IMG/VR virus record: IMGVR_UViG_2529292911_000007
DNA length: 49,111 bases
Source of the DNA: a virus
Taxonomy: Duplodnaviria > Heunggongvirae > Uroviricota > Caudoviricetes
Strand: one strand, 5' to 3'
Shown: positions 5,600 to 7,286 of the stretch, in pieces
Numbering within the stretch: position 1 is the first letter of the stretch
Layout: each line of letters opens with the position of its first letter
Made by a program: the position numbers and the translations under genes
The notes under the pieces: generated by a model
Database searches by the model: none
The model's input: the letters and a program-made list of their open reading frames with translations, nothing else
Told to the model about the DNA's origin: nothing

Positions 5600-5645
5600 G
5601 GGAGGCAAAAGAAAACCCGGCACGGTGGCCGGGACGTTTTATTTC
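5600..5645. terminator. Bidirectional rho-independent terminator downstream of the DUF4411/ImmA module
   Basis: Perfect stem CCCGGC-acggtg-GCCGGG (5616-5633) with T-rich runs on both strands (TTTTATTT on plus, TTTTCTTTTG on minus). Confidence 0.5.
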
Positions 5646-6150
5646 AAAGAAAAATTATGACTAGCGTATCTTGGAAGAAATTCATATAGTGTTAATGTCT
5701 TAACGCCGTGAGAAGCAGCAGCATCCGGGATCATTATTCTTTTTTTAGGTTTGCCACCGGATGGTTTCTCATGGGTAATAATAGTATATCCATGTGTCAT
5801 CGCATGGGCTATTAAAAAAGCATCTGCTTTTTCATGGCTTGCAAAATCAAACTTTGCCTTTTCGGTAACATCTAATTTAGTTGACCAATTTATTAACTTT
5901 GCATAATTTTCTATTGAACTATGCTCATCTTCGAAGAATGATGATGGTAACTCTTCTTTAATCCATTTACACAATGGATCATCTTTTGCACATAGTTCTT
6001 TTTTACAGCATTAATGCTATAAATCAGACCATTAATGTGTAAAGCGAGAAGAAAATCCCAAAATATTTTGCAATAATTGAAGTTATATGCAAAGTTTTTT
6101 GCCTCTATGAAGACATTACTATCAATTAAGAATTTTCCATTATGAATCAT
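5639..6150 (-). pseudogene. DUF4411-family PIN-like protein, frameshifted at an A6 homopolymer
   Basis: Two overlapping ORFs (5911-6150 and 5639-5974) together give a DUF4411-like protein: N-terminal KFLIDSNVFIEAKN and C-terminal ADAFLIAHAMTHGYTIITHE motifs. Adding one A to the A6 run (plus-strand T-run 5999-6004) joins the frames into about 170 aa. Confidence 0.6.
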
Positions 6151-7286
6151 AGAGATTCTCGTTTTTTATAAAATTCAACAACTGTATCTGCTTTTACATT
6201 TAGCAGTACGCCTGCTTCCCTTAATGGTAATTGTTGAGACATTGCTTTGGAAATTATTATATTCGTAAGTTTTGGACTGTTACGAACAGGTAATGTGTTA
6301 AAGAAAGAACCACCATTGGATTCTTTTTTGGGCTTATTGTAAGCTTGATCTTTAATTATCTCCAAAGTGTTTCTTTCTATCAAATCTAATTGTAACGCTT
6401 TGATTGCACAAGCGAAATCACTAACCTTAAATAACTTAGAAACCTCTTTTACTCGATAATAATTATTATCGCTGGATGCATTAAGCCAGAAAGATTTGAA
6501 GAGATTATCAGGCATTAAGATTTCAGCAGCAACTTTATTACAAAAAGATTCTATGTTTTTTTCTGTGTCCCACCCAGAGACTCCATCGACTCCAAGCCAA
6601 AGATGAGCCACCTCATGAAATAATGTAAATACCTGCGCAGATAACGCGTCCGAGCTATTTACAAAAATGATCGGAGCAACGCTATCAGATATACAGAAAC
6701 CACGAAACTCTCGCGTGTCAAGTTTTCTTTTATTATTATTACCCACAACACCATTCTTGAAAACTAATACGCCAGTGTCTTCTATTAGTTTTGCCACTTT
6801 AGAAAAATAGCTCTCAAAAGTGACATTTTTTATCTCTTTTTGTATATCAAAATGTATTGTGTTTGCTATGTCTGTAGCAACAACCTTATAATTTAATTTT
6901 CTATTAAATTTAAATTTACCAATAAAATCGAGTGGATCATCATTACCATTTTCTCTTAAATAGTCTTTGTACCACTCAAGTTTATATTCTATATCATAGT
7001 AAACATCAAAAAAATCTTTTCCTAACTCACGGCTATTTATAGCTTGCCTTAAGTCAGGGATCTTGGGTTTGGCTGGAGTTGGTGGCGTTTCAAGAAATAA
7101 AAAACCGAAAGGGATTCCTCCAATTTTTGCCAGTTTTTCTGCTGCGGATTTACTTACCACTCCGTTAAGAAATTTATTAATCTTTTTGGGCATGACTTGG
7201 TCAGCAAGAGTTTCGATAGAAACTCCTTGAGAATTTGCTATCCAATCAATCATCTTCCTAGACAATTGAAATTCAACCGCTGCCAT
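6147..7286 (-). CDS. ImmA/IrrE-family zinc metallopeptidase with N-terminal HTH-like region
   Basis: 379 aa with HExxH (LFHEVAHLW) in an ImmA/IrrE (COG2856-like) context; AGGTGA RBS before the ATG; stop overlaps the DUF4411 start (operon); visibly AT-rich. Confidence 0.7.
   Translation of the reverse strand: MAAVEFQLSRKMIDWIANSQGVSIETLADQVMPKKINKFLNGVVSKSAAEKLAKIGGIPFGFLFLETPPTPAKPKIPDLRQAINSRELGKDFFDVYYDIEYKLEWYKDYLRENGNDDPLDFIGKFKFNRKLNYKVVATDIANTIHFDIQKEIKNVTFESYFSKVAKLIEDTGVLVFKNGVVGNNNKRKLDTREFRGFCISDSVAPIIFVNSSDALSAQVFTLFHEVAHLWLGVDGVSGWDTEKNIESFCNKVAAEILMPDNLFKSFWLNASSDNNYYRVKEVSKLFKVSDFACAIKALQLDLIERNTLEIIKDQAYNKPKKESNGGSFFNTLPVRNSPKLTNIIISKAMSQQLPLREAGVLLNVKADTVVEFYKKRESL

Follow-up and report, generated by a model that had tools for sequence, protein, structure and literature searches.

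A prophage-borne HTH-M78/DUF4411 gene pair of Escherichia coli is a probable VapBC52-type toxin–antitoxin system

We analyzed a two-gene cassette (positions 5639–7286) within a 49,111-nucleotide stretch of Caudoviricetes DNA, IMG/VR virus record IMGVR_UViG_2529292911_000007, referred to here in its entirety as the window. The first gene encodes a 379-residue protein that fuses a helix-turn-helix (HTH) domain to an M78-family zinc peptidase, and the second encodes a DUF4411 protein with a PIN nuclease fold. We conclude that the locus is probably a toxin–antitoxin (TA) system of the type represented by Mycobacterium tuberculosis VapBC52, in which a PIN RNase would be gated by autoproteolysis of its HTH-M78 antitoxin in response to single-stranded DNA (ssDNA), and that it is probably carried as a “moron” within the immunity region of an icd-integrated lambdoid prophage of E. 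coli. The direct basis for this assignment is the anatomy of the genes, the domain identities, the conservation of key residues, the obligate pairing of the two genes, their slot in the prophage, and the homology of both proteins to VapBC52.

The antitoxin gene (6147–7286, minus strand) precedes the toxin gene (5639–6150, minus strand; 170 residues when intact), and the TGA stop codon of the former and the ATG start codon of the latter share an ATGA overlap. As given in the window, the toxin gene is divided into two open reading frames (ORFs; 5911–6150 and 5639–5974, both minus strand) with a frameshift between them. A ribosome-binding site (AGGTGA; 7291–7296, minus strand) lies 4 nt 5′ of the ATG at 7286, a bidirectional intrinsic terminator with a 6-bp all-GC stem and T-runs on both sides (5616–5633) follows the toxin gene, and GC content in the cassette is 30–37% versus 50–53% in the flanks. 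The initial annotation of this DNA had described just such a compact AT-rich operon, with a good ribosome-binding site, an overlapping stop and start, and a bidirectional downstream terminator, and had named its products as an ImmA/IrrE-like 379-residue protein with an HExxH motif and a DUF4411-like PIN-fold partner. All of these points held up, and the profile searches that it proposed for the two families returned significant Pfam matches to both proteins.

The antitoxin matches PF06114 (Peptidase_M78, “IrrE N-terminal-like”) at residues 169–291 with an E value of 1.2e-13, and contains an HExxH motif at H224–H228 and the zinc-peptidase residues H224, E225, H228, and E246. An Xre-type HTH domain occupies approximately residues 10–64 at the N terminus. 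An hhalign alignment of residues 13–70 to a phage cI/Cro profile has 91% probability (E = 1e-6); Pfam finds no HTH in any of 32 homologues. The predicted model places four helices in a C-terminal domain (residues 328–378), with no GAF-like domain visible in this all-helical part, and its lowest-confidence stretch (predicted local distance difference test, pLDDT, of 66–70) is the linker. Structure comparison ranks CapP, IrrE, and the HTH domains of the proteins they cleave highest. The antitoxin joins in one chain what the ImmR/ImmA, DdrO/IrrE, and CapH/CapP pairs divide between a substrate (Xre HTH) and an enzyme (M78).

To describe residue conservation, we counted identities in 74 full-length partner proteins from many phyla. 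H224, E225, H228, E246, and C249 are invariant (74 of 74). The last of these belongs to an E-x-x-C-N motif that is shared with VapB52 and is distinct from the switch cysteine of that protein. The linker carries a PP...PD[F/L/M]R motif, represented in the window by L79-R80, in which the arginine is present in all 74 partners, D78 in 71, and P68 and P69 in 73; residue 79 is invariably F, L, or M. Because IrrE cleaves DdrO between Leu106 and Arg107 (PMC12828697), this linker motif is a likely site of self-cleavage.

The two halves of the toxin both match PF14367, with positions 1–50 of the family found on the ORF at 5911–6150 (E = 2e-10) and positions 56–154 on the ORF at 5639–5974 (E = 3.5e-19). 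An AlphaFold2 model of the protein, calculated from a 33-sequence alignment, has a pLDDT of 89, and the best Protein Data Bank folds returned by Foldseek are the VapC toxins Rv0301, Shigella VapC, Rickettsia VapC2, and VapC11 (probability 1.0, TM score 0.5–0.65), including the D7A and D98N mutants of Shigella VapC; the searched set comprised entries to 8 April 2026, without 9vzy. Residues D10, E52, D110, and E128 are kept in 128–129 of 129 distinct DUF4411 homologues. Their spacing is that of the D/E/D/E tetrad of VapC proteins.

To determine how consistently the two genes occur together, we scanned one genome per species, which yielded at least 378 DUF4411 relatives, and kept 80 loci for analysis. 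In 79 of these, spread over many phyla, an HTH-M78 gene ends where the DUF4411 gene starts on the same strand; the lone unpaired locus sits at a contig end, without upstream sequence. The partner is full-length in one ORF in 74 of the 79 loci, and in the others it is split or cut by a contig end. Among IMG/VR viral loci, 78 of 80 have both genes, and contig ends truncate the remaining two. The pair is therefore obligate. The cassette is also self-contained and occurs outside any phage context: in Actinobacillus its only neighbors are housekeeping genes, it lies on 32 plasmids, and it is found next to a restriction-like DUF1156/DUF499/SNF2 cluster and within an island carrying an integrase and HicAB.

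Profile comparisons connect both proteins to a TA system of known structure. The toxin-family profile matches chain D of 9vzy (“DUF4411 family protein”, VapC52) with an E value of 7e-14, and the antitoxin-family profile matches chain A (VapB52, 393 residues) over positions 10–331 with an E value of 1.7e-21. Entries 9vzy and 9vzz correspond to M. tuberculosis VapBC52, composed of the Rv2515c antitoxin and the Rv2514c toxin (Singh et al., NAR, June 2026, PMC13273310). That report describes VapC52 as a PIN-fold nuclease that cleaves tRNA in the anticodon or variable loop, and a crystal complex of one antitoxin to two toxins in which the five-helix N-terminal domain of VapB52 is essential for toxin binding and the four-helix C-terminal domain occludes the toxin active site. 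The middle domain of VapB52 is CapP/IrrE/PrpR-like; ssDNA induces self-cleavage of VapB52 with release of the N-terminal domain, a reaction abolished in H216A/H220A; the cut probably falls at a conserved “FR motif” where the N-terminal domain meets the middle domain; and Cys229 coordinates the zinc ion in the inactive state, forming a cysteine switch.

The E. coli cassette resembles VapBC52 in its antitoxin-then-toxin gene order, in a DUF4411 PIN toxin with the same acidic tetrad, and in the layout of the antitoxin, where a five-helix Xre-like N-terminal domain is followed by a hydrophobic-Arg linker motif, an M78 peptidase (HExxH...E) of CapP/IrrE fold, and four C-terminal helices. In the profile alignment, L79-R80 falls on the D-F-R-R segment of 9vzy chain A, and the HExxH...E...C-N residues align as well. 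The linker motif differs, being L-R in the E. coli protein versus F-R in VapB52, as does the setting, which is a mycobacterial chromosome for VapBC52 and the immunity region of a lambdoid prophage in a Gram-negative host here; the E. coli member is known from its sequence and models. Compared with canonical VapBC systems, the toxin shares the VapC-like PIN fold, with a tRNA target known in the VapBC52 prototype, whereas the antitoxin, at about 380 residues with an enzymatic domain, is not a small AbrB, ribbon-helix-helix, or Phd protein. By analogy with VapBC52, the stoichiometry would also differ, at 1:2, and release would occur by autoproteolysis rather than Lon/Clp degradation.

We therefore picture the E. 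coli system working as the prototype does, with complex formation, the ssDNA trigger, the self-cleavage site, the tRNase activity, and any antiphage effect each carried over, conditionally, from VapBC52. The 379-residue protein would bind a dimer of the DUF4411 PIN nuclease, with its N-terminal Xre-like domain providing the main grip and its C-terminal four-helix domain blocking the nuclease active site, and it probably represses its own promoter too. Arising from phage replication, recombination, or DNA damage, ssDNA would activate the M78 zinc peptidase, which would then cut its own chain at the hydrophobic-Arg motif of the linker, L79-R80. Loss of the N-terminal domain would free the PIN nuclease to cleave tRNA and stop translation, with growth arrest or abortive infection as the outcome. 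The TA or abortive-infection interpretation already put forward in the initial annotation is in line with all of our findings. Its remark that the pair had not been experimentally characterized is outdated: HTH-fused COG2856 peptidases beside PIN or RelE toxins were predicted to form three-component TA systems in 2009 (PMC2701414), DUF4411.1 was described downstream of HTH-DUF955 fusions in 2017 (PMC5499597), and the homologous VapBC52 has since been characterized at the structural and biochemical levels (PMC13273310).

Several points weigh against this assignment. Sequence identity to VapBC52 is low, and the relationship is detected by profile searches alone. No sequence alignment is obtained for the C-terminal domain, with the profile match ending at position 331 of 376, and the agreement with VapB52 in a four-helix C-terminal domain is one of predicted topology only. 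The switch cysteine of VapB52 and CapP, C229 in the former, aligns with Ser237 of the E. coli protein, and this position is serine in 67 of the 74 partners and cysteine in none; without a cysteine switch, the E. coli protein may differ from the prototype in how it is kept inactive and in its triggering by ssDNA. Defense by the intact module is unproven even for VapBC52: Mycobacterium smegmatis was protected from phage D29 when the toxin was over-expressed alone and not when VapB52 and VapC52 were co-expressed (PMC13273310). PADLOC v2 contains no model that matches DUF4411. An ssDNA-triggered module beside cI should also fire at the prophage's own SOS induction. Finally, insertion sequence IS1 splits the antitoxin gene in E. 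coli ATCC 43886 (NZ_CP024256.1; locus L015, 2089–4005) into pieces of 188 and 205 residues while leaving an intact, identical DUF4411 gene, and E2528-C1, like ATCC 43886 an enterotoxigenic E. coli strain, likewise has IS1 in the antitoxin gene and an intact toxin gene; a split antitoxin beside an intact toxin is compatible with a toxin that is not lethal, or with polar silencing.

We considered whether the M78 protein might act only as a transcription switch, in the manner of a fused CapH-CapP or ImmR-ImmA pair, with the HTH domain repressing the operon, damage-induced cleavage de-repressing it, and the nuclease controlled by its amount. The structural resemblance of the antitoxin to CapP, IrrE, and the HTH domains of their substrates fits such a role, as does a palindrome upstream of the cassette. 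There, a sigma-70-like site (TTGACG-17 nt-AACAAT; 7324–7352, minus strand) resembles a promoter of the cassette's own, and the 15-bp palindrome with 7-bp arms (CAACAAT-T-ATTGTTG; 7316–7330) overlaps its -10 element. This palindrome contains the perfect 13-bp palindrome recorded in the initial annotation and is, on its sequence, a candidate operator for the antitoxin HTH. TTGACG followed 16–17 nt later by CACAACAAT is also found upstream of the Klebsiella and Rosenbergiella orthologues, and because this arrangement is kept, we infer that the cassette brings its own promoter. These two orthologues keep the left half of the palindrome, a portion of the -10 element, but not the right half, and a search upstream of the other orthologues examined found no palindrome reaching 6 bp; with only the left half conserved, the operator role is unproven.

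The partial conservation of the palindrome argues against a pure transcription switch. So does the translational coupling of the two genes, since de-repression would raise both products, and so does VapBC52, which crystallizes as a 1:2 complex and needs the N-terminal domain of the antitoxin for toxin binding, as its report describes (PMC13273310). We consider this explanation improbable. In CapH/CapP, ImmR/ImmA, and DdrO/IrrE, the M78 peptidase cleaves a separate Xre-type repressor, whereas the cassette encodes peptidase and substrate HTH in a single chain, and its output, by analogy, would be the release of bound toxin and not only gene de-repression. A separate observation concerns the palindrome sequence itself: CAACAA-N3-TTGTTG occurs in exactly two perfect copies in the window, 641 bp apart, the second at 7957–7971 within the cI coding sequence (codons S-T-K-I-V-E). 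The chance expectation in the window is 0.23 copies, and 3 of 100 shuffles reach two matches; the two sites may be paired operators or a coincidence.

The position of the cassette in the prophage provides a further line of evidence on its role. Directly upstream lies a cI-like repressor gene (7415–8107, minus strand) with Pfam matches to HTH_3 and Peptidase_S24, and no terminator is seen between it and the cassette. On the other side, a 49-nt repeat with TTGCTATTG motifs at 5432–5480 recurs at 8136–8184, marking operator repeats common to an OL/pL region (about 5432–5540) and an OR region (about 8136–8217), and a pL-like promoter (5466–5438, minus strand) points leftward toward kil. The shared repeat and this promoter-like site place OL/pL immediately beyond the terminator, and the cassette, lying between cI and OL/pL, therefore occupies the rexAB position of lambda, as the initial annotation had proposed. 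In the lysogen, the cassette would be transcribed from its own promoter and probably by read-through from cI as well, as with lambda rexAB. The likeness to rexAB extends from the slot and its closing terminator to this probable expression in the lysogen with cI and to the expected logic, which would be to sense the DNA intermediates of an invading phage and then shut down the cell. The means differ, as RexAB is a sensor coupled to a membrane ion channel and the cassette is a predicted protease-gated RNase. The two are unrelated in sequence and in structure; scans of Pfam, PHROG, and PADLOC gave no RexA or RexB match for the cassette.

This slot is used repeatedly. Prophages of Klebsiella, Rosenbergiella, and Providencia (six different ones in the last) carry the cassette after the repressor gene. 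Where an N-type gene can be recognized (Rosenbergiella and two of the Providencia prophages), the cassette comes before it, and sieB lies beyond the cassette in two Providencia loci; the surrounding repressors and replication modules are mutually unrelated. In Morganellaceae (Providencia) prophages, cI and the cassette are separated by a small DUF3024 gene, at times with further small ORFs, which makes the slot a stack of cargo genes. In IMG/VR, at least 45 of 76 pairs follow a same-strand, repressor-sized HTH gene, 38 of these also with a divergent cro-like gene, and a cI/Cro-like pair was found upstream in 1 of the 61 analyzable one-per-species genome loci; repressors were called with an HTH hidden Markov model built from enterobacterial cI/Cro sequences, and all of these counts are lower bounds.

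This neighborhood invites the idea that the peptidase is an ImmA-like anti-repressor that cleaves the adjacent cI to induce the phage, with DUF4411 as an accessory nuclease. The placement of the cassette immediately downstream of cI-type repressors in many prophages is in keeping with that idea, some of these repressors are short (134–156 residues) and the 155-residue one in Klebsiella has no Peptidase_S24 match, and ImmA/ImmR and IrrE/DdrO offer precedents. Against it, the cI protein of this prophage carries an S24 domain for cleaving itself, the peptidase is already joined to a substrate HTH, and the same cassette is combined with at least eight different repressor alleles. The tie to one separate repressor that characterizes ImmR/ImmA-type pairs is absent, given the many repressors and the lack of any detectable one in 60 of the 61 analyzable genome loci and in Actinobacillus. 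We regard an anti-repressor function as very improbable.

A more serious competitor to a sensing role is that the cassette is purely an addiction or stabilization module that retains the prophage, or elsewhere a plasmid or island, by post-segregational killing and has no role against superinfecting phages. It is distributed as TA systems typically are, over plasmids, integrative islands, and prophages; the failure of co-expressed VapB52 and VapC52 to protect against D29 points the same way, and so does the absence of a defense-database model for the toxin. The intact DUF4411 protein has no PADLOC v2 match at E ≤ 10, and 33 DUF4411 homologues give only four isolated, chance-level matches at E ≤ 0.05, so PADLOC v2 has no model that recognizes the toxin. 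The antitoxin does match 12 PADLOC RmrA models weakly (E = 6e-8 to 8e-4), three of which (PDLC03947, PDLC03948, and PDLC03953) align over most of its length, the first placing residues 20–314 on profile positions 23–304 of 383. A PADLOC scan, one of those suggested in the initial annotation, thus recovers the antitoxin, at a weak level, and not its partner.

Other evidence favors sensing over addiction. The ssDNA-activated peptidase described in the VapBC52 report (PMC13273310) points to a sensor, the cassette recurs in a cI-to-pL slot used by exclusion genes, one relative adjoins the restriction-like DUF1156/DUF499/SNF2 cluster, and the related RosmerTA systems, which have zinc-peptidase antitoxins, defend against phages. 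A pure addiction role thus seems unlikely to us, if less so than the two alternatives above. RosmerTA systems were validated as antiphage in 2022 (Millman et al., bioRxiv 10.1101/2022.05.11.491447), and their combination of RmrA with a variable RmrT (Millman et al. 2022; Ernits et al. 2023) resembles the cassette in being a two-gene TA system with an HTH-ImmA-type antitoxin. The cassette differs in that DUF4411 matches no RmrT or other model in PADLOC v2 (2023), the sole defense library scanned, and the characterized RmrT toxins have other folds, including membrane-depolarizing ones. NetFlax has also reported PIN-like partners of an ImmA node (PMC10440598). The E101 prophage TA system of Rousset et al. 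2021 (bioRxiv 10.1101/2020.05.25.114553), whose toxin has no predicted domain, does not appear to be the same module.

The toxin gene in the window carries a -1 frameshift at a T6 run (5999–6004; A6 on the coding strand) where relatives have seven bases. The contraction from T7 to T6 shifts the frame at codons K50/K51, just before the catalytic E52. We compared the window with the icd-integrated prophage of E. coli CV839-06, to which it is nearly identical (about 99.97%), and found six substitutions and eight indels over about 48 kb, insertion sequence content aside. All eight indels (5998, 7300, 44813, 45032, 45095, 45417, 45469, and 49090) are one-base contractions of homopolymers of six or more bases, always in the window, and two of the six seven-base runs in its first 11.5 kb are affected. 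A second contraction within the cassette reduces an A7 run of relatives to A6 (7301–7306) in the 5′ untranslated region of the antitoxin gene. Those at 44813 and 49090 fall, by coordinate mapping rather than translation, within the spans of acyltransferase and mcrC genes annotated as intact in CV839-06. At least 80% of the region is present in 33 of 5,426 complete E. coli genomes, and among the matches listed (25 of the 33 full-length E. coli), none has the contractions: each carries the longer run or departs from it solely through an IS1 insertion.

Because the contractions go one way and hit only homopolymers, they indicate sequencing or assembly error. The set of eight suggests systematic homopolymer under-calling in the source assembly, and the frameshift is most likely a sequencing artefact, with the natural toxin allele intact, as in the 170-residue protein of CV839-06 (WP_000581650.1); the antitoxin partner in the intact allele is WP_000741702.1. 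The poly-A tract that the initial annotation wished to repair before cloning accordingly most likely does not mark a biological pseudogene. Were the frameshift genuine, the toxin would be a pseudogene in this genome and the locus a decaying remnant with an orphan antitoxin. The sequence as given does carry the frameshift, and decayed DUF4411 copies are found elsewhere, truncated in Enterobacter kobei and split in a Methylobacter locus (L019). Given the one-way contractions against an otherwise nearly identical prophage, their mapping to the spans of other genes annotated as intact, and their absence from every match listed among the full-length E. coli genomes, we set biological inactivation aside as having only a small chance of being correct.

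Several features of the surrounding prophage were also recorded. A 75-bp segment containing the terminator (5560–5634) shares about 93% identity with intergenic sequence from lambda-like phages (e.g., Lambda_4C10 and 4A7), and it is probably what most of the 1,128 query-matching E. coli genomes have in common; it may be a conserved junction for cargo exchange in the slot. The cassette was not found in cultured-phage records, where the common part is this 75-bp segment only and a tblastn search gave one remote match at 27% identity. No N-like antiterminator is annotated or recognized between pL and kil (5161–5640). The early rightward genes (8212–9015) include a YdaS-type gene at the cro position and a YdaT-type gene at the cII position, as in Rac-like prophages, and despite these the recombination genes are lambda exo-bet-gam.

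Farther along the window, a 1.3-kb IS3-family element with HTH_Tnp_1 and rve ORFs (16763–18070), which CV839-06 lacks, lies inside a second element of the IS3 family, which disrupts the prophage's lysozyme gene, rrrD; CV839-06 has an IS1 near 11486 that the window lacks. Mapping of the CV839-06 annotation onto the window places an ompC-like porin gene, iss/bor, lom, and an acyltransferase gene in the prophage (about 13949–15031, 19456–19749, and the right end), and the right end (about 46000–49111) abuts an e14-like remnant with an AAA ATPase and mcrC (McrBC-type restriction) and a partial icd copy.

Taken together, the cassette is a prophage-borne, Gram-negative member of a TA family that was predicted in 2009 and 2017 and whose mechanism became known in 2026. 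A more specific and tentative proposal, which we hold well short of the VapBC52-type assignment itself, is that in lambdoid prophages of Enterobacterales the cassette is a rexAB replacement: expressed in the lysogen with cI, it would sense ssDNA or recombination intermediates of a superinfecting phage and abort the infection by tRNA cleavage at native expression, with a mode of auto-inhibition that lacks the cysteine switch (Ser237 at that position) and perhaps with wiring to the immunity region through the two CAACAA-N3-TTGTTG sites, in the cassette promoter and in cI. If this is true, the prophage needs a way to avoid triggering the cassette at its own SOS induction. The E. coli member, intact in at least 33 complete genomes, offers a genetically tractable host, large phage panels, and a slot shared by many unrelated lambdoid prophages, which would make it a good system in which to ask whether an ssDNA-sensing, self-cleaving antitoxin gives abortive-infection immunity at native expression, how a version without the cysteine switch stays off, and how a prophage tolerates such a module during its own induction.

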